From the NCBI GenBank assembly GCA_050303855.1, contig JBNLCO010000006.1:1820-65819 (forward strand): a stretch of 64,000 bases of DNA, in the 5' to 3' direction. Under the pieces are notes generated by a model. That model had not been told where the DNA came from and ran no database searches. It worked only from the letters and a program-made list of their open reading frames with translations. This DNA is from Candidatus Pacearchaeota archaeon (GTDB taxonomy: Archaea > Nanobdellota > Nanobdellia > Pacearchaeales > GW2011-AR1). Positions 12,780-64,000 of the stretch are shown piece after piece. A program made the position numbers and the translations under genes. Every line of letters begins with the position of its first letter. The stretch's first letter is position 1.

Positions 12780-12854
12780 ATTAAATCTGAAGATAATTTT
12801 CTTATTTAAAGGTTTTCCCCCAAACTTTTTAACTCAAATTTTACTAACAATTCT

Positions 12855-15760: not shown

Positions 15761-15869
15761 CTCTTTTTACCTCCTTTCAAATTATATTTTTTATTTGCTA
15801 AGCAAATTCTCATAGAAAAAACAGCCCATCCTTATTTATAAGAATTATGTCGTTAGAAAATAGGGATTT

Positions 15870-16901: not shown

Positions 16902-17581
16902 TCTTTCCTCAAAATCTCACACTTTATATTATTCTCTTCACAAAGTTCCTTAAACTCTTTAGCATCATCCTCAGAGCCAATGATGCTCCCCCAATGCATA
17001 GGAATAGCAACACTAGGCTTAATCAATTTAGCGGCCTCAGCGGCCTCCTCTACGTTCATAGTAAACCTTCCTCCAATAGGAAGTAAAGCAATAAACTCCT
17101 TTCCAGGTTGTTTATGGCCAGTAAGTCTTTGCATCTCAGGTACAAGATCACTATCTCCAGAATGATAAATAATAACATTATTCATCTTAATAACATAACC
17201 TACCCAACCTTCATCTTTAGGGTGAAAATGTTTATCAGTATTATAAGAGGGAATAGTTGAGATAGAAATTCCTCCAAGGTCCATTTCCTGCATAGGCTCA
17301 ATAATTTCGATTTTTATTGGAACTTTAAACCTAACAATTTTACTCTGACAATCCGCAGTGATAATAATTTTAGTGCCTTCCTTAACAATCTTCTCCAAGT
17401 CCGCAAAACTACAATGGTCATAATGGCTATGGGTTATCAAAATTATGTCTGCCTTATCCAAACCTTCCTTTATGTTATAAGGATCAATATAAATTACCTT
17501 TGAATTTTTAATCAAAAATCCCGAGTGACCAAGCCACTTTATTTCAATATTTCCAAAATTCATATAACAAAAAAACAACAA
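16898..17581 (-). CDS. MBL-fold metallo-hydrolase.
   Basis: HSHYDH metal-binding motif, 227 aa. Overlaps the downstream DHH gene by 4 nt, suggesting an operon. Confidence 0.65.
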   Translation of the reverse strand: MLFFCYMNFGNIEIKWLGHSGFLIKNSKVIYIDPYNIKEGLDKADIILITHSHYDHCSFADLEKIVKEGTKIIITADCQSKIVRFKVPIKIEIIEPMQEMDLGGISISTIPSYNTDKHFHPKDEGWVGYVIKMNNVIIYHSGDSDLVPEMQRLTGHKQPGKEFIALLPIGGRFTMNVEEAAEAAKLIKPSVAIPMHWGSIIGSEDDAKEFKELCEENNIKCEILRKE

Positions 17582-19178: not shown

Positions 19179-20222
19179 TTAGCTAAAGGCCTTTCTAACC
19201 ATTTCTTCAAATTTTTCCAAATCCTCTTTCCTTATCTGGCCCCCAACCGCATTTTCATGCCCTCCTCCGGTTGCACTATCTAACTTGGATATAATCTTGA
19301 CAATTTTATCTCTAACTTTCAAACCTCTAACAGAAATGTTTACTCTAGGGCCCTTAGCATAAACCACAACAATAACCTTATCTGAAAACAGATAACTCAA
19401 ACCATTGGATATCTCAGAACTCATACTTATCTCTCCTGAATATTCAAAAAACAAAACTTTAGATTCATCAACTTTACTCCTAGCCTTACTCATTATTGAA
19501 GAATATTTTTTCTCAATATCTAAAAATCTCTTATAAAAGACCTTATTAAAATTATTCTCTTGTAGAACATCGTAAGGACCACTAGACTTAACTAAGAAAT
19601 TCATCATCCCAATTACATTAGTAGTTTTATCTTTTATTCCAAAGCCAAATATTCTAGCTACTTTCCCAATCTCAGACTTGTAAAGCAAATCAAAAGCCTT
19701 TGGCTTCTTATCATCTAAACACAATTCAGGATATTCTTTCTTAAAATTCTTATAAAAATCAGGAATAAACCTGTCAGATATACAACCTACCATCCCCAAC
19801 CACAAATCTTCCTTCTTACCTGAAATCTGATAACATAAGGCAGTAACAGGCTCGTTACTCTTCTTTCTATTGTATAAAGGATTATAATAAAAAATAAACT
19901 TCGGGATTGTTTTCCTATCATTTTCATGGTGATCTATCCAAACCAAAGGAATGTTGAATTTCTTAAGCTCTTCAAAGAATTCTGGAGAAATTCGTGGCTT
20001 ATCTAAAACAAAAATATAATCAGCTTCCAGCTCATGAATCTTCCTAAAATAGTCTATTGACAAATCATTTCCTTTTATTGGGAAACCTTTTCCTTTTCCA
20101 CAGAATCTTCTCAACAAAAGATAGCTACACAAACCATCCTGATCGTTGTCAAAAAGAAAAAGAGGATTTTGCGCCTTATCCAAGTGATCCTTAATTTCAG
20201 AAACTTGTTTCTTAGTTAACAT
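19179..20222 (-). CDS. DHH/DHHA1-family phosphoesterase (second copy).
   Basis: Motifs LFLFDNDQDGLCS, WIDHHEN and a C-terminal GGGHENAVGG (DHHA1 GGGH). Confidence 0.65.
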   Translation of the reverse strand: MLTKKQVSEIKDHLDKAQNPLFLFDNDQDGLCSYLLLRRFCGKGKGFPIKGNDLSIDYFRKIHELEADYIFVLDKPRISPEFFEELKKFNIPLVWIDHHENDRKTIPKFIFYYNPLYNRKKSNEPVTALCYQISGKKEDLWLGMVGCISDRFIPDFYKNFKKEYPELCLDDKKPKAFDLLYKSEIGKVARIFGFGIKDKTTNVIGMMNFLVKSSGPYDVLQENNFNKVFYKRFLDIEKKYSSIMSKARSKVDESKVLFFEYSGEISMSSEISNGLSYLFSDKVIVVVYAKGPRVNISVRGLKVRDKIVKIISKLDSATGGGHENAVGGQIRKEDLEKFEEMVRKAFS

Positions 20223-20273
20223 TATCTGAAAAAGACATTTTCTTTTATATATCTTATTAGGAAATAAAAATCT

Positions 20274-21554
20274 TTAAGGAGTTAATCTTGTCCTATCTCT
20301 AGGGAACAAAACTGCCTCTCTTATATTTTCTAGCCCTAAAATTAGCATAGTTAATCTTTCCAAACCAAGACCCCATCCAGCATGAGGCGGAGCACCATAT
20401 CTAAAGCTATCAATATAACCCTTAAAGTCCTTAGGATTCAAACCTTTAACTTTCAACCTCTTTTCAAGCAATTCTGGAATATGTACTCTCTGCCCACCCG
20501 AAGAAATTTCCATGCCTTGATAAATAGCATCAAATCCTCCGCTTAAACCATCTCCCTTAGGCATTATGTAAAAGGGTTTTCCCTCTATAGGCCAATCATG
20601 AACAAAAACAATTGTATCTGGAAATAATTCCCCTAATTTCTTCTCTCCATCTCCAGTCAAATCTAATTTCTCTGTATGTATCTTGTTTTTTCTCAATAAC
20701 TGATTTGTTTCTTCAAAAGTAAGATATTTAGTCTTAGGAATCTTCAAACTCAGACCCAAAATATCTAGTTCTCTTTTATTAGTGTCTATAACTTTCTGTA
20801 TAACAAACTGAACGCACCTAGCCAAAACATCCATAACCTTAAACTCATCGGCAAAACTCTGCTCATAATCCAGCTGCCTTGATTCATTTAAATGTCTAGG
20901 AGTATTATGCTTTTCTGCTCTCCAAACAGTAAAGATTGTAAAAACCTTCTCTAAAGAACAAGCAATCATTTGTTTATACAATTGGCAGCTCTGAGATAAA
21001 TAAGCATCTTTTTCAAAATATTTCAATTTGTATAATTCAGTACCGCCTTCAGAACTAGCTGCAATTATTGAAGGAAATACCGCTTCTAAAGCCCCTTCCT
21101 CTTTGATCATAAACTCTCTATACGCACTCATTATTGTTGATTGTATCTCAAAAACTGCCTGAACCTTTGGTTTTCTAATATCCAAAAACCTATAGTCAAG
21201 TCTATTCTGGAATGAAGCAGGTTTTTCATTTTTTTCATTAACATGTATAGGTAATTTACCCGCAATAGAGATAACTTCTAATCCCGTAACTTCAATTTCA
21301 ACATCATCTCTAGTAAATTCCGCCTTAACCTTAGCACTTTTAACTTTCCCAGTAATTTCAACTGCACTCTCTAAAGACAACCCCGAAATCTTAGCCATAA
21401 TATCTTCAGATTTAGCAACACATTGAACAATTCCAGTTCTATCTCGCAAAAGAACAAATCCAAGCTTAGCTAGATTTCTTATCTCATAAACCCAACCTTT
21501 CAACAAAACTTCCTTAGAAGAAGTCCTCAAATCTTTAACATAAGTCTGTTCCAT
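20274..21554 (-). CDS. aspS: Aspartyl-tRNA synthetase (archaeal type).
   Basis: VWRAEKHNTPRHLNESRQLDYEQSF matches the archaeal AspRS motif 2 (FRAEEHNTTRHLNE). N-terminal OB anticodon-binding domain. C-terminal GAPPHAGWGLGLERL (motif 3). Confidence 0.85.
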   Translation of the reverse strand: MEQTYVKDLRTSSKEVLLKGWVYEIRNLAKLGFVLLRDRTGIVQCVAKSEDIMAKISGLSLESAVEITGKVKSAKVKAEFTRDDVEIEVTGLEVISIAGKLPIHVNEKNEKPASFQNRLDYRFLDIRKPKVQAVFEIQSTIMSAYREFMIKEEGALEAVFPSIIAASSEGGTELYKLKYFEKDAYLSQSCQLYKQMIACSLEKVFTIFTVWRAEKHNTPRHLNESRQLDYEQSFADEFKVMDVLARCVQFVIQKVIDTNKRELDILGLSLKIPKTKYLTFEETNQLLRKNKIHTEKLDLTGDGEKKLGELFPDTIVFVHDWPIEGKPFYIMPKGDGLSGGFDAIYQGMEISSGGQRVHIPELLEKRLKVKGLNPKDFKGYIDSFRYGAPPHAGWGLGLERLTMLILGLENIREAVLFPRDRTRLTP

Positions 21555-21961: not shown

Positions 21962-22780
21962 TTAAGATTTTGATTTTGTCATTTCAATAACTTTATAAGA
22001 TGCAACACCCAAATTGTAGATCTCAGATTTCCCAATCTTTGCTTTTCCTTCTCCTTCATGAATGTGTCCACAAAAAACATATTTTGGATTGTATTTTTTT
22101 ATATAATTTAAAATAACTTTACTTCCAGCATGTTTTCCCACATAATTTTTCGGAGCTCCCCATTTCCCAGAAACCTTATCAAGGTATCCAAACGGAGGCT
22201 GGTGGCAAACAAGGATATCCAAACCACCAAAATTATTCAAAAACCTTTTTGCTTTTGCAGTTTCATTTTTCGCCTTTGAGATTTTCTTTTTATCTTTTGT
22301 TCCAAATTCTTTATTCCAACAGACATCATTAAAATATTCTAAAAAACCAATTCTTAGCCCATTGATATTTCTGACAACATTTCTTATGAAATAAAAATTA
22401 TCAATTTTATTCATTCCTTGTCTTAATGAAGGTAGTTTTATGTTGTATTTCTTTTCATCTTTTTTAACTTCTGAATCATAAATCATGCTCATTCCAACAT
22501 TCCCTAAGATGGAGTATGTTGGTGCAATCTTTGAAAGATATTTCCAAACATCTAAGGAAGAATCACAAATTTCTTTGTAAGATTTTTTTAAAGCCTCTCC
22601 GTCATATTCAAGTTCTTCTAGCCCTTGTTGTTTTCTTTTTATGTTTTCAAAGAAAAATTTTCTCGCGAAATCTGCTTTGCCAACATCACCAGTACATAAA
22701 ACTAAATCAATATCTTTATTCGGAACTTTCGAAAGTTTCTTCATATCTCCATGAGGATCTCCAACTACTAGAATTTTCAT
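21962..22780 (-). CDS. Calcineurin-like metallophosphoesterase.
   Basis: Motifs GDPHG, GDVG and GHIHEG. Confidence 0.7.
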   Translation of the reverse strand: MKILVVGDPHGDMKKLSKVPNKDIDLVLCTGDVGKADFARKFFFENIKRKQQGLEELEYDGEALKKSYKEICDSSLDVWKYLSKIAPTYSILGNVGMSMIYDSEVKKDEKKYNIKLPSLRQGMNKIDNFYFIRNVVRNINGLRIGFLEYFNDVCWNKEFGTKDKKKISKAKNETAKAKRFLNNFGGLDILVCHQPPFGYLDKVSGKWGAPKNYVGKHAGSKVILNYIKKYNPKYVFCGHIHEGEGKAKIGKSEIYNLGVASYKVIEMTKSKS

Positions 22781-22797
22781 AATAAAACCATCAAAAT

Positions 22798-24258
22798 CTA
22801 CTTTAAAAGTTTATTTACTATCTCCATAACTTCCTTCCCATTAATCTGTCCTTTAAACTCTTTCATAACTAATCCCATATATGCATTAGCATTCAATCCA
22901 GGTTTTTCTTTTATCAATTTCAATATCTTCTCCTCCACTTCAGAAGTATCTTTCTTTTCTACTTTTACAGCCTTATCAAATTCTTCGCCCTTAGTTAATT
23001 TGATCAATATGTCCTTCACATCACTTTCTAGAAGCTCTTTATCTCTTATTTTCTTAAGAATCTCCACATAATAATCACTCAAGATTTCTTCAACTTCTTC
23101 TAAACTCTTATTTTCTTTTGAAGAAATTTCTTTAGGGAAAAGTAACATCATTTTTGCAACAAAATTAACCTTGTCATAAACATTAAGCAAATCCTTAAAT
23201 TCATTAATTCTATCCATCTTCAATAAGAGTTTAATCATTTCTTCACTCAAACCTTTTTCTTTCAATTCTCCTGCAATATCACTTCTTAGCTTAGGAAGAT
23301 CTTTCTTACATTCGTTTATGAAATCTCTAGAAATTTTCAATAAAGGCAAATCAGTCTCAGGATACATTCTATCTGCTCCAGGCATAGGCCTAAGAAATTC
23401 TGTCCCAAAATCCTTGTCATTCAATGCATTTCTTACTTCTGCAGGAGTAGGATTTTTTTTATCAGATAATTCTTTCTGTCTAAGAACTTCATTATCAATT
23501 GTATTCAAAAAAGTCTTCATATCCTGCATACCTTTCAACTCAACCCGATTCTCTCCACGTATAGAAATATTGACATCCTGTCTTATAGTTCCAAGACCTC
23601 TCTTAACTTTGCAACTTCTTAATACCTCTCCAATATACAAAGCAACTTCCTTAGCCTGTTCAGGAGTTTTAATATCGGGAGATGTAGCAATTTCAATTAA
23701 AGGTATTCCCAATCTGTCCAAAGTATAATGAACCTCCTCTTTCTCAGATTTAATTTTTCTAGCAGAATCTTCTTCGATACATACGGTGTCAATTCCTACT
23801 TTTCCAGAAGACGTTTCAACATAACCGTCCCTTGCAATTAAAACGGTTCTCTGAAATCCAGAAGTATTTGACCCGTCAACAACAGTCTTCCTCATTATTT
23901 GAGCAACAGGAATAATATTACAATTCAAAAGCAAAGCAATCTGAACTCCAATTTTCAAAGCCTCTGGATTAATTTCATGCGGAGGTTCTTCATCAAAATC
24001 AATTAAACAAGAGTTCTCTTTATGACCTTTGTAAACAAATGTTTTGTTTAAAGAAGCCTGATATTTTGCAGCAACATCAACTTCCCCACTCTCTCCTGCA
24101 ACAGCATGAAGTCTTCTCTTGACAGAAGAATCAGGCTCATCACTCCTAAGAACAGCAGGACAATCACAAAATAATTTCTTTCCATTAGCATCTAACTGCT
24201 GATGAATCTCTAAACCAGACTTAAATTTTAATTTAGCATAATCAATTAATTCTGACAT
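22798..24258 (-). CDS. gatE: Glu-tRNA(Gln) amidotransferase subunit E (GatB/E family). Shorter than typical GatE.
   Basis: N-terminal GLEIHQQLDANGKKLFCDCP is the GatE signature (GatB has GLEVHVQL). 486 aa versus about 620 for canonical GatE. gatD lies nearby. Confidence 0.7.
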   Translation of the reverse strand: MSELIDYAKLKFKSGLEIHQQLDANGKKLFCDCPAVLRSDEPDSSVKRRLHAVAGESGEVDVAAKYQASLNKTFVYKGHKENSCLIDFDEEPPHEINPEALKIGVQIALLLNCNIIPVAQIMRKTVVDGSNTSGFQRTVLIARDGYVETSSGKVGIDTVCIEEDSARKIKSEKEEVHYTLDRLGIPLIEIATSPDIKTPEQAKEVALYIGEVLRSCKVKRGLGTIRQDVNISIRGENRVELKGMQDMKTFLNTIDNEVLRQKELSDKKNPTPAEVRNALNDKDFGTEFLRPMPGADRMYPETDLPLLKISRDFINECKKDLPKLRSDIAGELKEKGLSEEMIKLLLKMDRINEFKDLLNVYDKVNFVAKMMLLFPKEISSKENKSLEEVEEILSDYYVEILKKIRDKELLESDVKDILIKLTKGEEFDKAVKVEKKDTSEVEEKILKLIKEKPGLNANAYMGLVMKEFKGQINGKEVMEIVNKLLK

Positions 24259-24770: not shown

Positions 24771-26087
24771 TTAATTCTCAAATTCCAAACGATCATTAAA
24801 TTCCCTGGAAATATTTTCTAACATTTTTTCCTTCACAAGTTTCTTATCTTTAGCCCAAGCTTCATGTCCTAAAACCCATCCCAATTTAGTCAAAGCCGTC
24901 TCAGACAACATATCTTTCAAGAATATAACTCCCGCATCTAACACTTCCCTTCCATTAGAATAAACATAAGGGTCTAACCTTCCGTTGATTGTCTGAGCAG
25001 TTGCACAAACAACAATCCCCTTAGAAATTATTTCTTTCAATTTTTTAGTCCATCCTGTTCTAGACCTCATTGTTGGAACATGGGCCAAACCAGAGACCTC
25101 TAAAATAATTCCTTTATACTTGTTCTTAACATACCAGTCAAGTATTCCCGGATCCTGCCCAGGATAAATCTTAACCAGAGCAATTTTATCTTCAAACTTC
25201 AAATCAGATTTAACCTTCCCTTTTTTTCTTTTATTGTAATTATCCAAAACTTCCAAGTTCCCATCAGAAAACACTTTTGCAATAGGAGTATCATTAATAA
25301 CATGAAAAGCATCTCTTCTTGAAGTATGCATCTTCTTAACTTTGGTACCAGGCATAACATAACAATAATCATCATTGGAACTACTATGTCCTACCAAAAC
25401 AACCTCAGCAATCTCACTCAAACCCGCAATCTCTGCAGAACAAACCAGATTCAAATTTGCATCACTCGAAGCACGATCAATACTCCTCTGGGAATATGTT
25501 AAAACAATTGGTTTAGTTAATTTATCAGAAAAGAAAAAACTTAAAGCACTAGCAGTATAATGCAAAAAATCAGTCCCATGAGTAATTACAACACCCTGTA
25601 CATTTGAATCATTGAGTAATTTCTCACAAGATCTAGCTATCTTCTGCCAATCCCTATAATCCATATCTTCTGAAGCTTTCATAAAAGGAATTTCAACTTT
25701 TGAAACGTTAACTTTCTCAAAAATTTCCGGATAAAATCTAAATAAACTCTCTGGAGTATCCAACCAATCAACCCCTCCTTTCTTAGGATTAAGTCTAGCT
25801 GCAATTGTACCTCCAGTAATTATCATCCCAATATTTGGTTTAGAAGGATTTTTCTTAATTTCAATTTTTTCTTCAACAGATTTAGATTTCTTAAGAACTT
25901 TTGTCTTCATAACGTCTTTCTTATTAAAACCAATATTATACCCATTATCTAACTTTAACAAAACAACCCCTTTATCCGACTCGGGACTTTCAATCAAAGT
26001 ACCTTCATAAATAGTCTTCATAAAATGCAGTTCTACTCTATCTCCAGGATAAGCATTAATTTTTACCATGACTAGAAAAAGAACCAA
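24771..26087 (-). CDS. gatD: Glu-tRNA(Gln) amidotransferase subunit D (asparaginase-like).
   Basis: Asparaginase-family threonine motif IITGGTIAARL. The 438-aa length fits. An alternative start MVKINAYPGD lies 6 codons downstream. Confidence 0.75.
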   Translation of the reverse strand: MVLFLVMVKINAYPGDRVELHFMKTIYEGTLIESPESDKGVVLLKLDNGYNIGFNKKDVMKTKVLKKSKSVEEKIEIKKNPSKPNIGMIITGGTIAARLNPKKGGVDWLDTPESLFRFYPEIFEKVNVSKVEIPFMKASEDMDYRDWQKIARSCEKLLNDSNVQGVVITHGTDFLHYTASALSFFFSDKLTKPIVLTYSQRSIDRASSDANLNLVCSAEIAGLSEIAEVVLVGHSSSNDDYCYVMPGTKVKKMHTSRRDAFHVINDTPIAKVFSDGNLEVLDNYNKRKKGKVKSDLKFEDKIALVKIYPGQDPGILDWYVKNKYKGIILEVSGLAHVPTMRSRTGWTKKLKEIISKGIVVCATAQTINGRLDPYVYSNGREVLDAGVIFLKDMLSETALTKLGWVLGHEAWAKDKKLVKEKMLENISREFNDRLEFEN

Positions 26088-51548: not shown

Positions 51549-51917
51549 TTATTCTACAAGAATTCCGTTCAAAGTTCCTTCTTGGGTAGGTCTACTAGTA
51601 ATTCTAACCTTTCCTTTAGAGGTCTCAACAATTGTCCCCTTTGTAATAACATTCTGTCTTGCAAGGAATCTATTTGAAGGAGTTTCAAGAACATTACTTA
51701 TCTCTGCTTTGATAGTCTTTCCTTTATCTTGAATATTAACTGACTTAGCCCTAAGCAAAATAGTCTTCTTATTTCCCCCTAAAACTTTAGAAGATTTTCT
51801 CTTATCAGACTCAGAAAGCTTGACCAGCTTCTTCTGACCAGTTCTTTCATTTTTCTTCTTCTTTCTCTGTTTAATGTACTTCCCACCGGAAATCTTTTTA
51901 CCTTTCTTCGTTGTCAT
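51549..51917 (-). CDS. Hypothetical basic (Lys-rich) protein, about 122 aa. Possible SH3-like/KOW beta-barrel RNA-binding or ribosomal-type protein.
   Basis: Starts MTTKKGKKISGGKYIKQRKKKKNER. The longer table ORF (to 52232) overlaps the Sm gene antisense and is likely spurious upstream of this ATG. Confidence 0.4.
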   Translation of the reverse strand: MTTKKGKKISGGKYIKQRKKKKNERTGQKKLVKLSESDKRKSSKVLGGNKKTILLRAKSVNIQDKGKTIKAEISNVLETPSNRFLARQNVITKGTIVETSKGKVRITSRPTQEGTLNGILVE

Positions 51918-51927
51918 GTTAATCTGA

Positions 51928-52266
51928 TTGAAATTTGATTTAAAAACCTTACTAAAGCGACCCAGATTCAAACAAAGAGAAATGTTTAAAAACAAATTTC
52001 TCAATAATCCCATTATGGTTAACGGATACGAAAGACCTCTTGACCTTTTGAACAACTCAAAGGGAAAGGAAGTTTTAGTGCATTTGAAAGGCGACAAACA
52101 GTTCGTAGGAACTTTGCTAGCTTTTGACATCCACATAAATCTTGTGTTGGATAACGTCAAAGAAATGCAAAACGGAGAATTAAAGAAAAGTTTAGGATTG
52201 ACTTTCCTTCGAGGAGATACAATCATATACATTTCTCCAGCTTCAACAGCACTAAAGAAAGAGTAA
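51928..52266 (+). CDS. Sm-like archaeal protein (LSm/SmAP).
   Basis: Sm1/Sm2 motifs: RPLDLLNNSKGKEVLVHLKGDKQFVGTLLAFDIHINLVLDNVKE...FLRGDTIIYI. The true start is probably downstream (MFKNK... or MVNGYE...). Confidence 0.75.
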   Translation: MKFDLKTLLKRPRFKQREMFKNKFLNNPIMVNGYERPLDLLNNSKGKEVLVHLKGDKQFVGTLLAFDIHINLVLDNVKEMQNGELKKSLGLTFLRGDTIIYISPASTALKKE

Positions 52267-53546: not shown

Positions 53547-53672
53547 TGCCCCGGACAGGATTCGAACCTGCGACTTCCAGCTTACTTTCCAGACTTAACT
53601 GGATAGAAGGTTTGCCTAAATCTCATTTTATTCAATTTATCTGGCACTCTATCCAGGCTGAGTTACCGGAGC
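53547..53672 (-). tRNA. tRNA gene with an unusually long (about 40-46 nt) non-canonical insertion in the anticodon region. Isotype unresolved.
   Basis: Minus strand. Acceptor GCTCCGG/CCGGGGC. D-arm ACTC-AGCCTGGATA-GAGT. T-arm GCAGG-TTCGAAT-CCTGT. Discriminator A. Between the D-arm and T-arm there are about 73 nt containing CCAGA...TCTGG and a duplicated CCAG. No 7-nt loop with U33 can be formed by a single canonical 37/38 intron, so the intron is either non-canonical or multiple. Confidence 0.55.
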
Positions 53673-53706: not shown

Positions 53707-54444
53707 TTACATTTCATAAAGACTTTCTGGAATTAATTCATTTTGCAAGATCAATTCTCTTTGTTTAAGAGAAGAAGGGGTTGGACAAAAACCATGTTTT
53801 TTCCAGACAAGATATTTCGTAAATTTAGAGTAATTATTGAAACCTATAGAATCCATCCATTTATTTATTCTTTCTGGACCCCTAACAGCAATCCGATAAA
53901 CATCTGCCTCATTAACCTTCTTCTTTGAAGAAAAGTGAACAGAATGGCCAATGTTCAAGAAATCCAACAAAAAACTCAAATCAAAAATAATTTGCTTAGA
54001 AACAACACCAATAAAAATCCTCGGATAAGTATGATATTTTCTCTTAAAAGAAGAATATCCTTTTTCATAACGTTTCATAAAATTTAAACAACCATCACAA
54101 TCAGCAAAACCCCTTATAAAAGCCGAAATTATGTTCTTGTCTTTAGAAAATAAAATTTCATGTGGAATTTTTACCGAATAGGTCTTTCTACGAGTAAAAC
54201 CAAAATCCTTGAAAATCTTAATTATCTCCTTCCTACAGATGTAAAACCCATAAACAGAATTGCTTTCTTTCTCATGTGCATTTACATTTATTCCAAATAC
54301 TTTAGAAAACAAAGGGCAAACAACCCTATCATAGTATTCCTTATCTTCATGAATATTGCCCCACATACTAATATGATTCTCCTGCAAATTCCCATCTGCT
54401 GCAAACATTCCAAATATTTCCGAAAGACCTTCTGTAATCTCCAT
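53707..54444 (-). CDS. Free-standing two-motif LAGLIDADG-family protein (paralogue 3).
   Basis: Motifs LSEIFGMFAADGNL and FIRGFADCDGCL. It lies immediately upstream, on the same strand, of the unusual intron-containing tRNA. Confidence 0.6.
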   Translation of the reverse strand: MEITEGLSEIFGMFAADGNLQENHISMWGNIHEDKEYYDRVVCPLFSKVFGINVNAHEKESNSVYGFYICRKEIIKIFKDFGFTRRKTYSVKIPHEILFSKDKNIISAFIRGFADCDGCLNFMKRYEKGYSSFKRKYHTYPRIFIGVVSKQIIFDLSFLLDFLNIGHSVHFSSKKKVNEADVYRIAVRGPERINKWMDSIGFNNYSKFTKYLVWKKHGFCPTPSSLKQRELILQNELIPESLYEM

Positions 54445-55125: not shown

Positions 55126-55836
55126 ATGAACAAAGCTACAATTTTAGGAGGATTAGCAACAATCTTAGCTCTAACAAGTTGTTCGATAGAAAATAAAATA
55201 CAAGAAAATCCAAAACCAAGAGCAACTTATCAAGAAAACGGACTTGCAAACATCTCAATACCAAAATATGAAAAGATTGGAGAGATAGGCGAACTAAAAA
55301 TTCAAGGTTTTAACAAATATTTTATACAAAAGATAGAAATAAGTGATACTGCAAATAATGAAGAAATGCTCCCTTTCATAATATATGATTTCAACAAGGA
55401 AAACAAAAAACTAGTCAAACAAAACATTAATCCAGACAACGAATACATTTTCTTAAAAGCAAGGGCAGAAACACCTTCCAAAAACAACCTTATTCAAGAA
55501 CTAGAAATACTGGGATATCGTTCAAAAAATCCTAGCCTCCAATCAGATTCAACAATAAGGGTTTACACCATAGACAATATCCAAAGGGCCTTAAAACCGT
55601 TCAGCCTATTAAAAACAGATTACATATATCCTTTAGTAACAACCAGCGATGAAAAAGCAGAAGGAAAAACACCCTTTTATGTAATCCCTGCTAACAACAA
55701 CATAGAAATCTCTGAAGAAAACGAAAGTGCACTAATAAAAACTCCTGGAGAAATATACAGAGGGATCAATCCAAAAATAGCAACTCCCTTTGAAAATATA
55801 AGAAAATCGGTTATAGATTTAAGAGATTTCTTCTAA
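55126..55836 (+). CDS. Putative secreted lipoprotein, 236 aa.
   Basis: N-terminal signal with lipobox-like LALTSC. Confidence 0.45.
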   Translation: MNKATILGGLATILALTSCSIENKIQENPKPRATYQENGLANISIPKYEKIGEIGELKIQGFNKYFIQKIEISDTANNEEMLPFIIYDFNKENKKLVKQNINPDNEYIFLKARAETPSKNNLIQELEILGYRSKNPSLQSDSTIRVYTIDNIQRALKPFSLLKTDYIYPLVTTSDEKAEGKTPFYVIPANNNIEISEENESALIKTPGEIYRGINPKIATPFENIRKSVIDLRDFF

Positions 55837-58800
55837 AGTTCACTCCCAGATTTAGCACCTTTAGATTGCAAATAACTAACAACATCAACATTATTAAGTT
55901 GAACAGCTCGATCTAACGCTGTTTCTCCAGAATCACTTTGGGTATTAACCTCTGCACCATTTTCAACAAGATATTTTACAATGTCAACATCTCCCTTAAT
56001 AGAGGCATGTATAAGAGCGGTCCAACCTTCTATACCATCTTTAACACTAACATCTGCACCATTTTCAACAAGATATTTTACAAGGTCAAGATGTCCAAGA
56101 CGAGATGCATAAATCAAAGGAGTCCATCCATCATCATCTTTAACATTGATATCAGCTCCTTGTTCAATCAAGGACATTATCTCAGCCCTATTATTGTCAT
56201 CCAGACCTCTATAAAGAGCATCAACTAACTGTTGATCAAGATTATCTAAACCAATTCCCTCAATACAAGTTTTAGTCAAGCCTGGTTCCTGAACACAATT
56301 CTTGCCTAATTTGTAACCAATTGATGCGCAAAGATTAGCATCGCAATAATTAGAAGTGCCACTTGTAGAACTTATACTTGTTATACAATCACTACACTGT
56401 GTTGCACTAGAATAAACGTCCCTTTGTTCAGCAGAAAGAGTATTCCAATTCGGAATATCAGAAGTGTCGTCTTGAGCAGGTTGTGCTTCTTTACAACTCA
56501 AGAACCCATATTCACAAGTCTTACCAATTCTTTCCCCAATATCTAAGCATTCAGTCTCACCACAGAAGTTACCCAAACCAGACCCACAATCATTACACTG
56601 AGTTGCTTCATATATTGATCTTAATTCTCTATCTGTGTACCCTTCTCCTGCACGACAATTGTATATAGGAGTATCACTTATATCTGCACCCTTTGCATAA
56701 TACTGACAAGAAGCGCCTAATTTTTTACCAATAACTGCACATAAATTACTATCACAATCATCAGGATAACTCTCACAATAAACGCAACTAGGAGCATCAT
56801 AAAGTATTGAAATTTGTTTTGAAGTAAACCTGCCCAAATCGGTGCTTCCTAAATTCTCACTCTCCCAAGAATCCAATTTTTGAGAATCAACATCCTGTGT
56901 AGACTCAATTATTGAATTATCCGACAAATCATAAAGCAGGGCAGCCCCCTCAAAATAAGTCTTATCAACAAGGCTCACGGTAACAGATTGTATTGGATCT
57001 GAAGGAATTGAACCTACAACCTTAGCTTCACCTGAAACCAAAACCTGACTAGCAGCTTTATTAAATGAAACGTCCGAAACATCAAACCAATAACGTGGAT
57101 CAATACCCCTAGTAGGATTAAATTCCCATACACCTTCTTTAAATCTAAAGTAATAAGGCTGTTCATTAAAAGAAAGATCTACCTTAAAGATACCTTCACT
57201 ATTCAAATTAACATTCTCTGTTTTCAAATCCGGACTAGAACTAATGAAATTAATTCTACCAAACAAAACACCCCCACTGAAACTAAGAACATTATTTATA
57301 ATAACTCCAAGACCCTCTATGTAGTTGCCATTACGTTCTTGAAGAGAAGTAATTATTTGTCTATTCACCTCCAATGAAACTGCCTTACCTTCAATACTAT
57401 CGCTAACAGAATACCAAAAATTATCTTTGGGATTAAACCAATACCAACCTCCCTCTTGGAACTTATAGTGAACATTTCTATAACTAGTTCCATCTTGGAA
57501 TTCAATATCAGGAGAAGAATATCCTGAAGAAAACTTGGCTAAAACACTACTAACTCCCGTACCACCAGTACCCGTAGAAATAGTTGTGCCACTTAATTGA
57601 GGAGATCTATATAGATAAACAGGATGAACATCAGAAGTTAAATACAAATTCGTGTATCTGTAAGTATTACAATATTGTTCCTCATTAACTTTACCCTTAT
57701 TAAGAGTTCTAACATACTTATTATCTTCTCCACAAACAAGCCCATTTTCATCTTTCTCATCGATCTTCAAATCTGCACCATTCCAATCAAAGATTCTAGC
57801 ATATCCAGTAACAGAAGTAGTTTCTTCATTTGTGGCAGGATTAATCCAAGAAATAAATATAACCGAGTGAGGCAATTTAGAGGCCCAAACAATATCCAAC
57901 TGGTCTCCAGGTTGAAGAGATGCTAGTTTAGTATCATAGTTATCTTCTCCGATCTTATTATAACCTGTTCCAACTTGGAAAATAACACTTCCTTGAGAAG
58001 TTTTATCTACGCCAATTGTAACTTTTGAATTTGAATCCTTTAAGGTATAGGTGGCCCCAGATTTATCTGCATAAGAAGGAACAGCAGAAACCCCTGCATA
58101 TTGGTATACATAAACAGCAGCACTATAGCACGCATAATCTCCAGAGAAAGCCAAACCCCCATCTAATTTTTCTGCAGCTTTCAATACTCTTTGCCGAGCA
58201 TCATCAATTGAAGAAATATCACTAGGAACTTGAGGCAAGATGCAAACGTTTCCTTGGTCATCAACAATTGTTCCAAGGTCCACACTATTTGTTTTTATTT
58301 GTTCAATCTTACCAAATTCCAAACCAGAAAGATCTCCATAAGCCAAACCTCTCAAGAAATAAAGTTCAGCTTTTTGATTACTAAAGAATACCTTATCCAA
58401 AATATTATTTATTATTTCTATCTTCTTAGAAGAATCAGATTCTTTCTTAACGTCTCTTAAAGTCTGACTATAATTCTGATTGTTAACATAATCTCCAGAA
58501 TTTACCAAATCATCAAGATAACTCTGAGCGGTGTCATTTAAAACAGAATTCTCAACATCTAAGGATTTAATAGCATCTTTAACGGAATCAGTATCTAGCC
58601 AACAACCAACGTTTGTATCTGTACAGTAACCCACTTTTCTCCATCTTGCATTTTCAGTCCCATCCTTAGCATCCGTTCCAATACCAGGGCTGTTTGTAGC
58701 ACAAACTCTTGTAATACCTTTTTGGTACAGCTCAGGGTTGATTAAACCTTCAGCCACATCTTGAAGGTTAGGATTCAATAAGCTATACAAACTAGCACTT

Positions 58801-61800
58801 CCAGAAACACATTCTTCTTCTGTTGTAACCCCCGAAGTAGTTTGTTCCTGCAAATACAAATCATTAACATAATTAACTGCAAAAGAAGTTGACACTTTTC
58901 CGAAACCACACTCTTCCTGATTATTTACAACAATACATAATTGGGTATATCCTGAAGGTGCAGTAAAGTCAACTGTATCTGAAGCATAATCTCCTACTGA
59001 AACGTAACCGGAATCAACTACTCTATTAAGCGCGCTATCTTGATAGAAACTCCCACTTCCACCCTTAAGATAAACTCTGTAATAAGCTCCAGAATCTTGT
59101 CCAGAATAAATGTGGTAATAAACCTTATACTGTGAGGTGGGAGGATTTGTTGCGGTAGTAAATGGAATCTCATCAAAGCTTCCTGTAAATTGCGGAGGCG
59201 AACGTGGAGTAGTTAAACTATCTAATAATTCAGCACTAGAAGGGTAAACCGTAGATACATAACTTTTACAAACCGCAGTTCCAGCTTCATCAACACTTCT
59301 AACTTTGAAAGCATTATAAGATTCAGAAGCATAATATTGTTTAAAGTAGTCTAAAGAATCTTTTGCATTATCCCATGCACTCTGTAATCCCAGATATTCT
59401 CCTCCACCACGGGTGTTCTCTCCTGAAATTAATCCAATTAATTTTGGAACAGCTACTTTAGCCAAAGGTATTGATTGTCTCCAAAAGAATTCACAAGCAT
59501 AAACACTATGTATCTCGTCACAAACACCAATAGTTTCTCCACTCTCCAAATTTTCCTGCAAACAATCCCTATATGATTCCTGGACACTTATCCATGAATC
59601 CAAACCAGCTTGAACACCTGTTGTACAAACCGGAACCTTTATCCCCTCTTTATAATTTGGTGCACAGAGAGCAATACTTCCAACTATTCCTGTCTGAACA
59701 ACATCCTTAACAGGGTAAGCCCCTCCAAAATCACATCTTGAGCTAGGACAAACAACAGGATCACAAACATTAAACAATAAATTACATTCTTTAGGAGACA
59801 TGAAATCTTGACACTGAACTGCGGGAGTTTCTACCGCAGGTTCTCCAACTTTGTAATTCTGACCGTTGATTCTAACAGAATTAACTCCATTCTTATAAGC
59901 TCTCTGAGCCTTCTCAATCGAATCAACAGCATCAGTTACAAGCCTTGTAGTTTTACTTTCACTCAATCCAGCAAATTGATTATAAACAGTTCCAGGAACC
60001 CCCACATTAATTTGTTGGCAAATATCATCTCCTAAACCAGAACTAGAAAATTCTTCCAAACCATTAGATCCAACGTTACATAACCAGAAACTATTCAATC
60101 TACCTGAAGCATCATAAGCAGTAATCTGACTTCCAACAGGAAGCTTAGGTTTAGTTGCAGCATACCAACCATCATTTGTATCTAAAGGAACAATCGCAGG
60201 ATAACCTTTGTAAGGGTCTTCCTCATAATACCTTACTTCTGGATTCTTATAACTATTCTCATATGAACCTTCATCATATTTATCAAAAGCTAAACTCAGA
60301 GGGTTTACTTTATCATTAACCATAACCAACTGACCATTCAAAGGATTTAACTGGAATGTTCTAGTAACAATATAATCATCATTCAAAACCAAAAGATATT
60401 CCCTATTAGTAGCTATATCAACAACCGGATAAACCAATTCATTATCCGCAATAAGATAATCTGCAGGGTTTCCAGGGAAGATAATCGAATTTGGAAGTAA
60501 AACAACACTCATCCCTCCAGGATATGAACTTTCAACATCTGCCCAAGTCTTTAAATCAGAAACCTGAATTCTCTTTATCTTATCATCTGAAGAAATAAAT
60601 CCTCCCTGGTGACCCTCTAGAGAATACTTGTCAAAGAAAGAAGTTCTTTCTACAAAATTCCCTGCGTTATTTTGAACGTCATAAAGCAAAGAGTAAAGTG
60701 TTTGGCTGTAAGACTTCTTGCTCTCAGCATCATTTGTACTCTTAACTAAAGTTGCATAAAGCTCTATATCTTTAAGATCATCTATGCTATAGATACCACT
60801 TTCCCAACCCTGGTAACTTAACAAATTCTTAATTTCATCAATCTCAAGAGGTTCATTTTTACCAGTAGGATCGACGAAAGTATTACCCAAGCCCACTAAA
60901 GAATCAGATCCAATCTGAGAATAATCCTTCATAAATTCCTGTTGATCAACAACCTTATTTGTTAAAGTTCCTGTTTGCAAAGAATCAGCTTCAAGTTGTT
61001 TTATTCTTTCATTCTGAGTTTGTATTGTATTGAAAACTTCATCAACTTGAGAATCTATCTCATCAGAATTCTCAAGGAAACAATCATCTAGAGAAATATA
61101 ATTCCCTTTACTTACTTCACTAGCACAAAAATCATTCCACCCTCCAGAACTACGCATGACCTTCTGTCTCGCTATAGATTTACCATCCGAGTTAGCCAAG
61201 AAATTCTTAGCAGTTAAAACAGCTCCTGTTGCTAAACAAACCTTAGCACTAGCTTCATTAAACGTATTGAGAGCATTTGAAGCCTTTTCAAGATCAGAAA
61301 TTGCATTACTTAAACTATCAACCCTATTCTCAATCTGTTCGTCAGAAAGTTGTATTGAACGTTTCTCTATGCCAATATTAAATCCAAATTCAGATTCAGA
61401 ATTCTGATAATTAAAACTTGGAACCACTGAAACCCTTGCAACCTTTTCTATGTTAGTATCAGTAAGGGTTAAACTATACCCTCCTCCAATACCTCTTGTT
61501 TCATCAATATCAAAAGTATAGCTATTCAAAGAAAATAATTGATTTGCAAGATTTTCTCCAGAAACATAAACCGTAACCCTTGCAGAATCTTCATCCACCG
61601 AATCTAGTTTAATATATTCTGAACCAGAAGCATTATCTTTTAAATTCAAATATACAACTTTATCCTTTCTTAATTGATAAGTCTGGATCTTACCGTCCGA
61701 ACTTCTTATCAAAACTTCTGCACCGTATTCTTGGTAAGTAGGCTCTTTTATACCTTCAAAGGAAATTGTTTTTATCTCTCCGTTAACTAAAACATCTCTA

Positions 61801-63908
61801 TTAGAAATACCCGAGTTAGATAAAGAATAGTCATCTTCACACATATCTAAAGGTTTAATTGAATCAGGATAGCTCTCAATAAATTCTTGACAAAGTTGTT
61901 TCAAAGCCTTATTTTGATTGATCCTTTTAGAAAGATTAATAGCCTGATACAAAGCTCTCTCACCATAAGTATCATCTGCCCCATCAATACTTAACCCTCC
62001 AAAACTATTCAAAACAGTTTCAAAATCAGTTATAGCTTTATCATAATATTGTTTATACAACTCGTTTGAATTTGAATTAAATACAAGTTTGTTTAAAACA
62101 AGTTTATTCTCATTAACTAAAACACTTCCTGAAACAACTCCTTCAAAAAAGTCTCCTGAAACGCTGTTATCTACCTTTGATAAAATATACTCAGAACAAG
62201 ACTGATGTAAAGAACAATCCTTTCCATAAAATTCTCCCACACCTAAAATCTCCGTCACAGTGTTCTTTCTCAAAATAAATTTAGGAGATCCACTCTCACT
62301 AGCAGTAAAATAATAACCTGTATCTTCTCCATCCTTGTAAACTTTGTAAACTTGTTTAGGCAAAATCCCTCCAACATCTAAATTAGCTTTCTGTAAATCA
62401 TAAGATTCCGGAACAACCTCAACAACCCCATTATCTTCTCCTTCAGAAAAACCACTTAAGGAAACTTTTTCTCCTTCAAAATCATATTGAGGGGAAACAA
62501 CATTTGTCTTAAAATCAACTTTTTGTATATTTTGTCCGCTAACAGTCCATTTGGCAAGAGTAACTGAAGCCCCTGAGAATTTCTTTAGAATTTCGGCCCC
62601 AATATCAAAAACCGCTGCTCCTGAACCTTCAGTATCCGAAAACAACAGATTCATTTGTATTGCAATACTTGAAATTTCATCCTCTGTTAACTTAGTTTTC
62701 TCTTCAGGTAAAGAAACCAAAACGGCATATAAATTTTCAACATCTGTTGATCCACCCTTAGAACTAATATAACCCAAATAAACACCTCTTCCATTGTTAG
62801 AATAAAGATAATCTCCAACAGAATAATCTTTAGCAATTCCATCAATAGAGATTCTCACTCTAGGGGACAAAAATAAATTAAAACTAGAACTGCCATCATC
62901 TTCCTTACACCTAATACTAACTTTCTGATTCAAACCATTCTTGTCCAAATCTGTTACAGTACACTTACTTTCTAAGAAATCACCATTATCATTAATTTCA
63001 ACATGATCTGTATTAATCAACAACTCTGCTCTAGTATCTGGATCTTCAACACCATTAAGTTTCAACTTCATTGAAGCCAAACAAGGGCTAAAACCAGGAA
63101 TATAAATCGAACCAGAAGTTTCACCTCCATTCAATCTAACTTGAGTAACTCTTTGCTTTCCAGAGTTTCCAAAACTAGCAGATCCAGAAGAAACATCAGA
63201 ATAAAGAGATATACTGGCATCATCCGTGCCAACACTATCAGCCCTAAGGTACCCTCTACCTTCCCAAAAACTATACTGATTTATATTGTTAAAATAATCC
63301 TCATCATTCAAAACAGGAAGATAAAATTCAGCCTGACCAACGCCAAATGCATTCTTAACATCATAATTAATCTTGGCTGTTAGATTTCCAGAAACAAAAT
63401 CAGGCATAGAACTTTCATTAGGGTTTTGTCTAAGGGTTATAGCAACATAACCCAAATTATTCAAAGCAGGATCAGTAAGAGTTTCATCAAAATCATAATA
63501 ACCCAAAGCAGACTGGGAAGGGAAATAACCAATACTCTTTATTTCTCTAGGATACTCCCCAACAATGTTTAGAGTGTTTATAGCTTGAACATCAATCAAA
63601 GGATTTATTTGTGTAGCTCCAATTTTACACAAAACAGTAACATCTTGTTCTTCAAGAAGATCACTCCTCACAACTGCAGGCTCACATTCAAAAGGTTGTA
63701 TTTGTAAAAGAAAATCTGTTCCAGCAGAACATAATTCGCTATCAAAACCTTGCTGAGTAAAACTTGCAAAACTTCCCCCAACACCTCCAGCATTGTTATA
63801 CAAAGAATAACTAGGAGTAGAAACGCTATAAGCCTCTATCCCTCCCAAAAGAAGAGTCCCCAATATCAAAACAAAAATACCTACAACAAAAAACTTATTC
63901 TTAATCAT
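55833..63908 (-). CDS. Giant secreted/surface protein (2691 aa) with a Cys-rich triple module and C-terminal ankyrin repeats.
   Basis: GGAGG lies 10 nt upstream of the ATG. N-terminal signal peptide MIKNKFFVVGIFVLILGTLLLGG. Long Ser/Gly/Asn/Asp-rich beta-like body. Three tandem Cys-rich units near the C-terminus (CVYCESYPDDCDSNLCAVIGKKLGASC..., CNDCGSGLGNFCGETECLDIGERIGKTC..., CSDCITSIS...YCDANLCASIGYKLGKNC...). Then about three or four ankyrin repeats (DGWTPLIYASRLGHLDLVKYLVENGADV...). Confidence 0.8.
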   Translation of the reverse strand: MIKNKFFVVGIFVLILGTLLLGGIEAYSVSTPSYSLYNNAGGVGGSFASFTQQGFDSELCSAGTDFLLQIQPFECEPAVVRSDLLEEQDVTVLCKIGATQINPLIDVQAINTLNIVGEYPREIKSIGYFPSQSALGYYDFDETLTDPALNNLGYVAITLRQNPNESSMPDFVSGNLTAKINYDVKNAFGVGQAEFYLPVLNDEDYFNNINQYSFWEGRGYLRADSVGTDDASISLYSDVSSGSASFGNSGKQRVTQVRLNGGETSGSIYIPGFSPCLASMKLKLNGVEDPDTRAELLINTDHVEINDNGDFLESKCTVTDLDKNGLNQKVSIRCKEDDGSSSFNLFLSPRVRISIDGIAKDYSVGDYLYSNNGRGVYLGYISSKGGSTDVENLYAVLVSLPEEKTKLTEDEISSIAIQMNLLFSDTEGSGAAVFDIGAEILKKFSGASVTLAKWTVSGQNIQKVDFKTNVVSPQYDFEGEKVSLSGFSEGEDNGVVEVVPESYDLQKANLDVGGILPKQVYKVYKDGEDTGYYFTASESGSPKFILRKNTVTEILGVGEFYGKDCSLHQSCSEYILSKVDNSVSGDFFEGVVSGSVLVNENKLVLNKLVFNSNSNELYKQYYDKAITDFETVLNSFGGLSIDGADDTYGERALYQAINLSKRINQNKALKQLCQEFIESYPDSIKPLDMCEDDYSLSNSGISNRDVLVNGEIKTISFEGIKEPTYQEYGAEVLIRSSDGKIQTYQLRKDKVVYLNLKDNASGSEYIKLDSVDEDSARVTVYVSGENLANQLFSLNSYTFDIDETRGIGGGYSLTLTDTNIEKVARVSVVPSFNYQNSESEFGFNIGIEKRSIQLSDEQIENRVDSLSNAISDLEKASNALNTFNEASAKVCLATGAVLTAKNFLANSDGKSIARQKVMRSSGGWNDFCASEVSKGNYISLDDCFLENSDEIDSQVDEVFNTIQTQNERIKQLEADSLQTGTLTNKVVDQQEFMKDYSQIGSDSLVGLGNTFVDPTGKNEPLEIDEIKNLLSYQGWESGIYSIDDLKDIELYATLVKSTNDAESKKSYSQTLYSLLYDVQNNAGNFVERTSFFDKYSLEGHQGGFISSDDKIKRIQVSDLKTWADVESSYPGGMSVVLLPNSIIFPGNPADYLIADNELVYPVVDIATNREYLLVLNDDYIVTRTFQLNPLNGQLVMVNDKVNPLSLAFDKYDEGSYENSYKNPEVRYYEEDPYKGYPAIVPLDTNDGWYAATKPKLPVGSQITAYDASGRLNSFWLCNVGSNGLEEFSSSGLGDDICQQINVGVPGTVYNQFAGLSESKTTRLVTDAVDSIEKAQRAYKNGVNSVRINGQNYKVGEPAVETPAVQCQDFMSPKECNLLFNVCDPVVCPSSRCDFGGAYPVKDVVQTGIVGSIALCAPNYKEGIKVPVCTTGVQAGLDSWISVQESYRDCLQENLESGETIGVCDEIHSVYACEFFWRQSIPLAKVAVPKLIGLISGENTRGGGEYLGLQSAWDNAKDSLDYFKQYYASESYNAFKVRSVDEAGTAVCKSYVSTVYPSSAELLDSLTTPRSPPQFTGSFDEIPFTTATNPPTSQYKVYYHIYSGQDSGAYYRVYLKGGSGSFYQDSALNRVVDSGYVSVGDYASDTVDFTAPSGYTQLCIVVNNQEECGFGKVSTSFAVNYVNDLYLQEQTTSGVTTEEECVSGSASLYSLLNPNLQDVAEGLINPELYQKGITRVCATNSPGIGTDAKDGTENARWRKVGYCTDTNVGCWLDTDSVKDAIKSLDVENSVLNDTAQSYLDDLVNSGDYVNNQNYSQTLRDVKKESDSSKKIEIINNILDKVFFSNQKAELYFLRGLAYGDLSGLEFGKIEQIKTNSVDLGTIVDDQGNVCILPQVPSDISSIDDARQRVLKAAEKLDGGLAFSGDYACYSAAVYVYQYAGVSAVPSYADKSGATYTLKDSNSKVTIGVDKTSQGSVIFQVGTGYNKIGEDNYDTKLASLQPGDQLDIVWASKLPHSVIFISWINPATNEETTSVTGYARIFDWNGADLKIDEKDENGLVCGEDNKYVRTLNKGKVNEEQYCNTYRYTNLYLTSDVHPVYLYRSPQLSGTTISTGTGGTGVSSVLAKFSSGYSSPDIEFQDGTSYRNVHYKFQEGGWYWFNPKDNFWYSVSDSIEGKAVSLEVNRQIITSLQERNGNYIEGLGVIINNVLSFSGGVLFGRINFISSSPDLKTENVNLNSEGIFKVDLSFNEQPYYFRFKEGVWEFNPTRGIDPRYWFDVSDVSFNKAASQVLVSGEAKVVGSIPSDPIQSVTVSLVDKTYFEGAALLYDLSDNSIIESTQDVDSQKLDSWESENLGSTDLGRFTSKQISILYDAPSCVYCESYPDDCDSNLCAVIGKKLGASCQYYAKGADISDTPIYNCRAGEGYTDRELRSIYEATQCNDCGSGLGNFCGETECLDIGERIGKTCEYGFLSCKEAQPAQDDTSDIPNWNTLSAEQRDVYSSATQCSDCITSISSTSGTSNYCDANLCASIGYKLGKNCVQEPGLTKTCIEGIGLDNLDQQLVDALYRGLDDNNRAEIMSLIEQGADINVKDDDGWTPLIYASRLGHLDLVKYLVENGADVSVKDGIEGWTALIHASIKGDVDIVKYLVENGAEVNTQSDSGETALDRAVQLNNVDVVSYLQSKGAKSGSEL
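55951..56085. repeat. Direct DNA repeat (about 31 bp, near-identical, period 99-103 bp) inside the ankyrin-repeat coding region.
   Basis: TCTGCACCATTTTCAACAAGATATTTTACAA(T/G) occurs at 55951-55982 and 56054-56085. The period equals one 33-aa ANK repeat. Confidence 0.7.
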
Positions 63909-64000
63909 CTAAGTAAAACCTCCAAACTTTTACTATCAAATAAAACATAGTTTTGCTGAAGTTGATTAAGTGAATTTGGCTCTGGAAGGCTAGTTGCACC

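Follow-up and report, generated by a model that had tools for sequence, protein, structure and literature searches.

A predicted exported giant protein of Pacearchaeota and Woesearchaeota with a conserved body, an exchangeable tail and a putative role in cell contact

What would a tiny archaeon do with an apparently exported protein of 2691 amino acids that ends in three cysteine-rich modules and a block of ankyrin repeats? The gene in question lies on the minus strand (55833..63908) of a 64,000-nucleotide stretch of a Candidatus Pacearchaeota contig (JBNLCO010000006.1), the whole of which we analyzed and refer to as the window. Here we ask what family this giant protein belongs to, what its parts are, and what its genomic setting indicates about function. 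We slightly favor the notion that it serves cell contact at the surface of the archaeon, where its tail would bind the wall of a partner cell, probably a bacterium, and cut it locally.

The gene is a single, uninterrupted 8-kb reading frame with an ATG start, encoding 2691 amino acids plus a stop, exactly as described in the original prediction, which had been made from the letters of the window. An identical protein is recorded at NCBI (P0001, from a 268-kb contig), and two contigs carry it. Homologues of 1900-3600 amino acids are intact in more than 100 independent assemblies. Because of the identical NCBI protein and these intact homologues, the open reading frame (ORF) is not a frameshift or assembly artefact; a split of the frame in other assemblies, named at the outset as a finding that would speak against the gene, was not seen. 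The stop codon abuts the next gene, and it does likewise in the other genomes compared.

We found that the protein belongs, judged by its homology to other proteins, to a family of giant proteins from Pacearchaeota and Woesearchaeota, fam00969. From a search space of 5.8 billion proteins, 119 relatives were listed (1874-3621 amino acids). They cover residues 1-1860 at 38-58% identity with bit scores of 1429-2393, and the named ones come from metagenome-assembled genomes of Nanoarchaeota, Pacearchaeota or simply "archaeon". When residues 661-1860 were searched exhaustively with HMMER, the matches fell into 1207 clusters at 50% identity, of which 967 had a representative at E<=1e-30. In GTDB genomes, one per species, we counted 506 stretches that encode a homologue, and we inspected the titles and loci of the best 80. 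Among these best 80 of 506, the titles name Woesearchaeota, Pacearchaeota, Nanoarchaeota or Nanoarchaeia, except for three generic or odd labels, and the sources given are groundwater, sediment and lake metagenomes. Separately, the operon records L069, L078 and P0211 go under the names "bacterium", "Candidatus Diapherotrites" or "Patescibacteria group bacterium", probably through mistakes in binning or labelling.

The family has been noticed before and never dissected. Castelle et al. (2021; PMC8204110) described fam00969 as large extracellular lytic-transglycosylase proteins of Pacearchaeota and Woesearchaeota and proposed a new class of extracellular enzymes that attach to bacterial walls. 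Such proteins had been noticed earlier (Rinke 2013 and Castelle 2015, as cited in PMC8204110), and Vigneron et al. (2022; PMC9723730) reported a "large lytic murein transglycosylase" and proposed that it binds and degrades bacterial walls. Other later papers take up the proposal of Castelle et al. The protein studied here resembles fam00969 in full-length homology of the ~1860-residue body, in lineage, in size and in predicted export, so the domain combination that first seemed unrecognizable comes from a large family already in the literature. The SLT domain by which the literature defines fam00969, in contrast, has no counterpart here (no Pfam match to SLT at E<=1) and is present in just 16/120 listed members. 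In its place, the tail of our protein combines ankyrin repeats with an NlpC/P60-CHAP-like fold, a pair of beta modules and three Cys modules. This ankyrin/Cys tail is a rare variant of the tail, not a new class. In the papers that we consulted on fam00969, we found no account of the body, the shuffled tail, the hidden hydrolase, the operon with the partner gene or the sequon depletion presented below, although an earlier description elsewhere is possible. A literature search for NlpC in Pacearchaeota or Woesearchaeota found no paper.

The protein divides into a conserved body and a variable tail. BLAST coverage by the 119 relatives is ~100% over residues 1-1860, except for a variable insert at ~481-620. 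Past residue ~1860 it falls to ~50% (residues 1861-2100), 25% (2100-2350), 5-12% (the Cys region) and 2-3% (the ankyrin repeats). The protein contains 54 cysteines, nearly all of them invariant across the family. The body proper (residues 27-1860; 58329..63830, minus strand), apparently rich in disulfides, has 206 near-invariant residues, including almost every cysteine, and appears to be built of beta-sandwich domains and long helices. It had no match in Pfam, NCBIfam, PHROGs or the sequences of the PDB, and a full-length family profile likewise found nothing among PDB sequences.

We modelled the body with AlphaFold2. The model of residues 26-1160 (predicted local distance difference test, pLDDT, 70.6; predicted template-modelling score 0.51) has beta-rich domains at ~65-400, 460-610 and 703-848, a helical bundle at 616-696 and very long helices at 856-1094. 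Residues 1161-2360 were modelled with a 32-sequence family alignment (mean pLDDT 64.8), with confident domains at ~1210-1358, 1571-1705 (a beta sandwich), 1730-1860, 1891-2105 (pLDDT ~90) and 2135-2330. Between the first two of these lies the most conserved stretch of the family, residues 1359-1570 (59199..59834, minus strand), with 12 invariant cysteines and the motifs CDPVxCPSSRC and GGGEY. This best-conserved stretch is also the worst-modelled part: long helices are predicted at pLDDT <50, two of the helices are moderately hydrophobic, and we found neither a fold match nor a profile match for it. Its folding may need the partner protein described below, or oligomerization. We considered a cryptic SLT/GH23 domain in the conserved helical stretch (CDEIHS...GGGEYLGLQS...SYNAF, with SLT-like motifs in residues 1350-1575) and rejected it, as hhalign gave a probability of 0.3% against the family SLT (an SLT alignment of 2 sequences).

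The tail is a set of modules that occur in varying order among the 120 members. In our protein it begins with module A (residues 1891-2105; 57594..58238, minus strand), which is discussed below. Module B (residues 2106-2345; 56874..57593, minus strand) consists of two beta-rich repeats of ~115 residues with a WYWFNP or WEFNP motif, and it has no family assignment. Three Cys modules follow on the same strand, at residues 2366-2425 (56634..56813), 2429-2480 (56469..56624) and 2495-2556 (56241..56426). The ankyrin block extends from residue ~2560 to the last residue, 2691 (55836..56231, minus strand). Across the 120 members, module A (taken as residues 1875-2095 of our protein) is found in 55, a second CHAP-like type in 27, SLT in 16 (e.g., at residues 2139-2284 of P0077), module B in 35 and ankyrin repeats in 5. 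The Cys module is present in 34/120, in one to three copies, and frequently forms the very C-terminal residues. Tails of other members also have matches to LRR, Amidase_3, DUF1615 and TPM, as well as APP_N-like matches.

The three tandem Cys modules noted originally are real and their motif was essentially right; the spacing given for it was slightly off. The pattern is C-x2-C-x(6-13)-C-x4-C-x2-IG-x-[KR]-x-G-x2-C, with a sixth cysteine 6-16 residues further on. A local hidden Markov model of the module found no other ORF in the window or in loci L001-L005. A word-indexed search with the 211-residue Cys-module region (56229-56861, minus strand) gave zero matches and missed even the parent protein; this null result, from a short and compositionally odd query, is uninformative about spread outside the family. 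The ankyrin repeats, predicted as three or four, were found as three canonical repeats plus a degenerate N-cap. They clear the Pfam cut-offs, so the possibility that they would fail profile searches did not materialize: Ank_2 scores 89 bits against a cut-off of 27.3 (E=3e-25), Ank_4 85.5 bits and Ank 77.9 bits in three stretches, and phmmer against the PDB matches ankyrin at E=3e-67. In scans of the whole and the split protein against Pfam, NCBIfam and PHROGs, the ankyrin block was the sole match.

The five ankyrin carriers are scattered on a neighbor-joining tree of the conserved C-terminal part of the body. The nearest relatives of our protein, P0002 and P0003 (72-73% identity in that region), are without ankyrin repeats. 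In L011, the closest GTDB representative (60% body identity), one CHAP-like, three Cys and one B-like module are present and ankyrin repeats are absent. From L011 we infer that the tripled Cys module is common to a small clade and that the ankyrin block is a terminal addition in the lineage of our protein. The alignments and the tree indicate that the body is vertically inherited and that the tail after residue ~1860 is a series of interchangeable modules.

Module A was overlooked in the original prediction. Its model has a papain-like alpha+beta fold. The fold matches are to Trichomonas NlpC1 (9.0), LysIME-EF1 (8.9), autolysin Acd24020 and Clostridium NlpC/P60 (8.6 each), CwlO (8.0), and MepS and the LysGH15 CHAP domain (7.8 each), with SagA and LytE also matched. 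The hydrolases that we compared with it were the phage endolysins PlyGRCS (8h1i), LysIME-EF1 (6ist) and LysGH15 (4olk), together with CwlO (8wt3), MepS (8xud), LytE (8i2f) and SagA (6b8c). Across 19 diverse module A copies that we aligned, two residues stand out as invariant: Cys1927, the putative nucleophile (58128-58130, minus strand), and His2014 (57867-57869, minus strand). In the AlphaFold2 model, Cys1927 begins a helix and His2014 is in a strand, which is the papain-like arrangement. Module A also aligns with the second CHAP-like tail module (profile-profile E=5e-5), with Cys and His in register. Candidates for the third catalytic residue are D2041 (in an FDW motif; G in 2/19 copies) and H2095 (in HPVY).

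Profile searches with the 19 copies gave matches to families of the papain-like clan (clan CA), all of them sub-threshold: NLPC_P60 in 4/19 (best 0.056), Amidase_6 in 2/19 (0.0045), CHAP in 1/19 (0.036), and DUF1287. The copy in our protein had no profile match, and a module A profile found nothing among PDB sequences. Known NlpC/P60-CHAP hydrolases are ~110 residues long; module A, in contrast, is ~215 residues with large insertions and has no above-threshold profile match to them. On the basis of the confidently modelled fold and the Cys-His dyad, we class residues 1891-2105 as an NlpC/P60-CHAP-like domain and suggest that it is a putative hydrolase. Counting all types, at least one murein-type enzyme fold is present in at least 78/120 members (at least 65%).

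The N terminus points to an exported protein. Residues 1-26 (63831..63908, minus strand) form a candidate Sec-type signal peptide, MIKNK followed by an 18-residue hydrophobic core and IEA|Y, and the family consensus (...S-x-A|Y) appears compatible with a signal-peptidase I site. Hydropathy shows one strongly hydrophobic segment, residues 1-25, and no C-terminal anchor. The family agrees, with an N-terminal hydrophobic segment in 114/120 members and a C-terminal transmembrane segment in 1/120, in agreement with the signal peptide and the missing anchor proposed at the outset. The one member of the latter kind, P0005 (2342 amino acids), differs from the other 119 in having two hydrophobic segments in its C-terminal 50 residues, a possible membrane anchor. 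From its n-, h- and c-regions, the protein is predicted to be exported via Sec and its signal peptide to be cleaved. Its invariant cysteine pairs and the sequon depletion presented next likewise suggest export.

N-glycosylation sequons (N-x-S/T) are depleted in both products of the operon described below. The giant protein has 6, against 26.9 +/- 4.8 expected from shuffled sequences (z=-4.4, ~4.5-fold depleted). Among the homologues P0002-P0060 and P0122-P0181, observed/expected ratios are 0.29 (median) for the family and 0.25 for the partner family. The other 45 ORFs of the window have 78 sequons, with 76.4 expected (ratio 1.02). This depletion is consistent with exposure of both proteins to the oligosaccharyltransferase on the outer side of the membrane and with selection for remaining largely unglycosylated. 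One retained sequon, N164-E-S, is nearly invariant.

We found that the giant gene comes second in an operon of two genes that is strictly conserved and, from the overlap of the two frames, apparently translationally coupled. The upstream partner gene had been overlooked at the edge of the window, where only its last 31 codons are present (...SLPEPNSLNQLQQNYVLFDSKSLEVLLR*; 63905..64000, minus strand), the remainder being outside. Its stop overlaps the giant ATG (ATGA), and these last 96 bases align with the C termini of partners from other genomes. In 64/64 GTDB-representative loci with enough flanking sequence, a homologue of the partner gene precedes the giant gene on its strand, with the 4-nucleotide overlap in 42/64. 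The partner family comprises at least 2068 proteins of 600-634 (~615) amino acids that are ~50% identical. Full-length partners had no match in Pfam or NCBIfam.

The partner, too, is a predicted exported protein, and its N terminus is, at the level of a sequence motif, pilin-like. In 87/120 partners it reads [KR][GAS]|Q[VIL]T-x-F followed by a hydrophobic run (IIIAIIIV), and in those 87 the residues Q+1, T+3 and F+5 are each 100% conserved. Archaeal class III (type IV pilin-like) signal peptides, the substrates of PibD/EppA, are built in this way: a short basic N terminus, a [KR]-[GAS] cleavage motif and then a hydrophobic helix of ~20 residues. The N-terminal 60 residues had no match in Pfam or NCBIfam, in which such short motifs score poorly. 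Since a C-terminal transmembrane segment is present in only 1/120 giant proteins, retention at the surface, if any, would be via another protein, for which the partner, being co-translated, suggests itself.

The operon has a fixed place. In each of three divergent genomes, it is flanked by S3Ae/GINS on one side and by TFIIB-S8e-LSM-RNase Z on the other, and the window keeps the same order for TFIIB, S8e and RNase Z. A fixed housekeeping locus argues for a core cellular function over a mobile effector.

How might these parts work together? Following export and cleavage of the signal peptide, the body would remain attached to the cell surface, with the partner as its most likely holder, because we saw no anchor in the giant protein itself. 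The Cys modules, the beta modules and the ankyrin repeats could then bind structures on the surface of a partner cell, and the NlpC/P60-like domain could cut peptide links in its wall. The SLT and Amidase_3 domains of sister proteins would cut glycan and amide links. The partners are probably bacteria, because three murein-directed enzyme folds (SLT, Amidase_3 and NlpC/P60-like) recur in the family. The outcome for the tiny archaeon would be attachment and access, and as tail modules are exchanged from lineage to lineage, the protein would become suited to different partners. The partner-cell attachment proposed in the original prediction therefore survives in part: contact is the best reading, and a eukaryote-type target, considered below, is not.

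In function, the giant protein comes closest to the SPEARE proteins of Nanohaloarchaeota (PMC6642349) and the archaeovorins of Omnitrophota (bioRxiv 10.1101/2023.11.21.568195). Both are giant proteins that lie mostly outside the cytoplasm of ultrasmall symbionts or predators, with adhesion and degradative domains proposed to attach to and breach another cell. SPEARE proteins differ in that a transmembrane segment anchors them and a restriction-enzyme part lies in the cytoplasm, and archaeovorins are longer than 10,000 amino acids. We found no sequence relationship to either, and the body and partner gene of the giant family are in neither.

Several points weigh against a contact-dependent, wall-cutting function. 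Whatever enzymatic activity, localization or host is ascribed to any member is a prediction. Module A is below Pfam thresholds (best sub-threshold E values 0.0045-0.056), and for its third catalytic residue there are two candidates. Papain-fold relatives of NlpC/P60 include acyltransferases and non-wall peptidases. A recognizable hydrolase module is absent from 42/120 listed members, and so wall cutting is not something that all members do. No function is assigned to the body, which makes up two thirds of the protein, and its best-conserved 210 residues are modelled at pLDDT <50. Extracellular ankyrin repeats are unusual. Finally, the pilin-like reading of the partner comes from a motif, with curated profiles negative.

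A more ambitious version of the cell-contact reading, which we put forward tentatively, is that partner and giant protein form a lineage-defining, undescribed cell-contact organelle of Pacearchaeota and Woesearchaeota. The partner would be a pilin-like tether or presenter, and the ~2000-residue body would carry exchangeable lytic and binding tails matched to the partner cell. Residues 1359-1570 would then be a new element for oligomerization or membrane engagement, and the ankyrin/Cys tail would recognize protein rather than glycan.

Our results might also indicate that the body is the main S-layer-like envelope protein of the archaeon, with a tail that serves envelope assembly, remodelling of its own wall, or stickiness to surfaces or minerals. 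We consider this unlikely, though it is the strongest of the alternatives. A near-universal, vertically inherited gene at a fixed housekeeping locus is what an envelope protein would have; the protein is exported, Cys-rich and full of beta-sandwiches, the 42/120 members without a hydrolase-like module would fit, and no other S-layer candidate was seen in the window. However, archaeal S-layer proteins are usually rich in N-glycans, and sequons here are strongly depleted. The protein has neither a membrane anchor nor a known S-layer fold. SLT, Amidase_3 and NlpC/P60-like folds would be without substrate in a murein-free archaeal envelope, and rapid shuffling of tails is unexpected for a lattice protein.

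A large conserved body with an exchanged, hypervariable C-terminal end is also the architecture of CdiA, Rhs and MafB. The giant protein could be a polymorphic toxin in that sense, a delivery body with variable C-terminal toxins released on contact in microbial competition. We regard this as improbable. No co-directional immunity gene is downstream; the neighboring gene there runs convergently, and its sequence differs from genome to genome without relationship. The loci inspected showed no orphan tails or immunity cassettes. The tails are multi-module mixtures of binding and enzyme domains, not a single toxin, and the gene is at a housekeeping locus rather than in an island. There is no type 5, 6 or 7 secretion context, and the protein is archaeal and apparently Sec-exported.

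Ankyrin repeats are typical of the effectors of intracellular bacteria, and the top NCBIfam matches are Legionella Dot/Icm Ank effectors, from which one might suppose that a eukaryotic host is the target of the protein as effector or adhesin, or that the repeats are eukaryote-like mimicry. We think this very improbable. The Legionella matches span the repeat only and reach 53.5 bits against a cut-off of 600 (NF043029 and others). Legionella AnkY, AnkH and other bacterial ankyrin effectors resemble the giant protein in the repeats, with scores 10-fold below the family cut-offs, and differ in the remaining architecture, export route and organism. No secretion system for injection into a eukaryote is evident, the relatives come from environmental metagenomes, and murein-type hydrolase folds occur together with the ankyrin repeats in the same tails. 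Because the ankyrin block is one swappable module of patchy distribution (5/120), a eukaryote-type target is unwarranted. The last alternative, that the tail with its ankyrin repeats is an assembly chimera or a decaying pseudogene extension, could appeal to the rarity of ankyrin repeats in the family and their absence from the closest relatives, and is barely credible given a frame open for 8 kb, an identical protein on two contigs, ankyrin repeats arising independently in the tails of four other members, and a stop that abuts the next gene as in other genomes.

The surroundings of the operon contain other features. The window is AT-rich (GC 0.30-0.37), with archaeal markers (TFIIB, S8e, GatD/GatE-type genes and two intron-bearing tRNAs) that, like the labels of the relatives, agree with its earlier attribution to a small-genome, AT-rich archaeon. 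The convergent small lipoprotein gene reported at 55126-55836 is there on the plus strand (55126..55836): a 236-residue ORF with a lipobox-like LALTSC that overlaps the giant stop by 4 nucleotides. L001, L003 and L004 have a downstream gene in this convergent orientation, too. We considered the lipoprotein as a conserved partner and rejected it, since BLAST between genomes gave E ~0.1; it is probably outside the system, its position being conserved and its sequence not. In L001, the genome of the ankyrin-bearing P0065, the convergent downstream gene (16183-17190, minus strand) has a match to LysM, a peptidoglycan-binding domain (24.8 bits against a cut-off of 20.9), whereas the lipobox protein at the equivalent place in the window is unrelated to it.

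Two over-long tRNAs have the look of intron-bearing archaeal tRNAs, a 90-nucleotide tRNA-Thr (12691-12780, minus strand) and a 126-nucleotide tRNA found by Rfam only (53547-53672, minus strand). A LAGLIDADG-type ORF (53707-54444, minus strand) adjoins the latter, and the syntenic region of L003 has three (15622-16314, 19909-20640 and 22197-23057), so free-standing homing-endonuclease-like genes seem to gather at this locus. The mechanically called S8e ORF (51549-52232, minus strand) has 227 residues and a Pfam match at 109-226, and its orthologues in L001, L003 and L004 have 120-121 residues; its start is therefore probably called too far upstream. Two paralogous class II tRNA synthetase genes of the Asp/Asn/Lys type are close together (17845-19146 and 20274-21554, both minus strand), near a GatE-like gene (22798-24258) and GatD (24771-26087).

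Few uncultured archaea are as abundant as the Pacearchaeota and Woesearchaeota. The sole molecular clue in the literature to their partners has been the lytic-transglycosylase domain of some of their giant proteins. What is new here is a near-universal family with a fixed body of ~1860 residues and a recombining tail, at least 65% of whose members have one of three murein-type folds, together with a constant, pilin-like partner. If the cell-contact reading is right, the type of tail should track the taxon of the partner cell, module A should cut wall peptides, and the partner and the giant protein should form a complex at the surface of these archaea.

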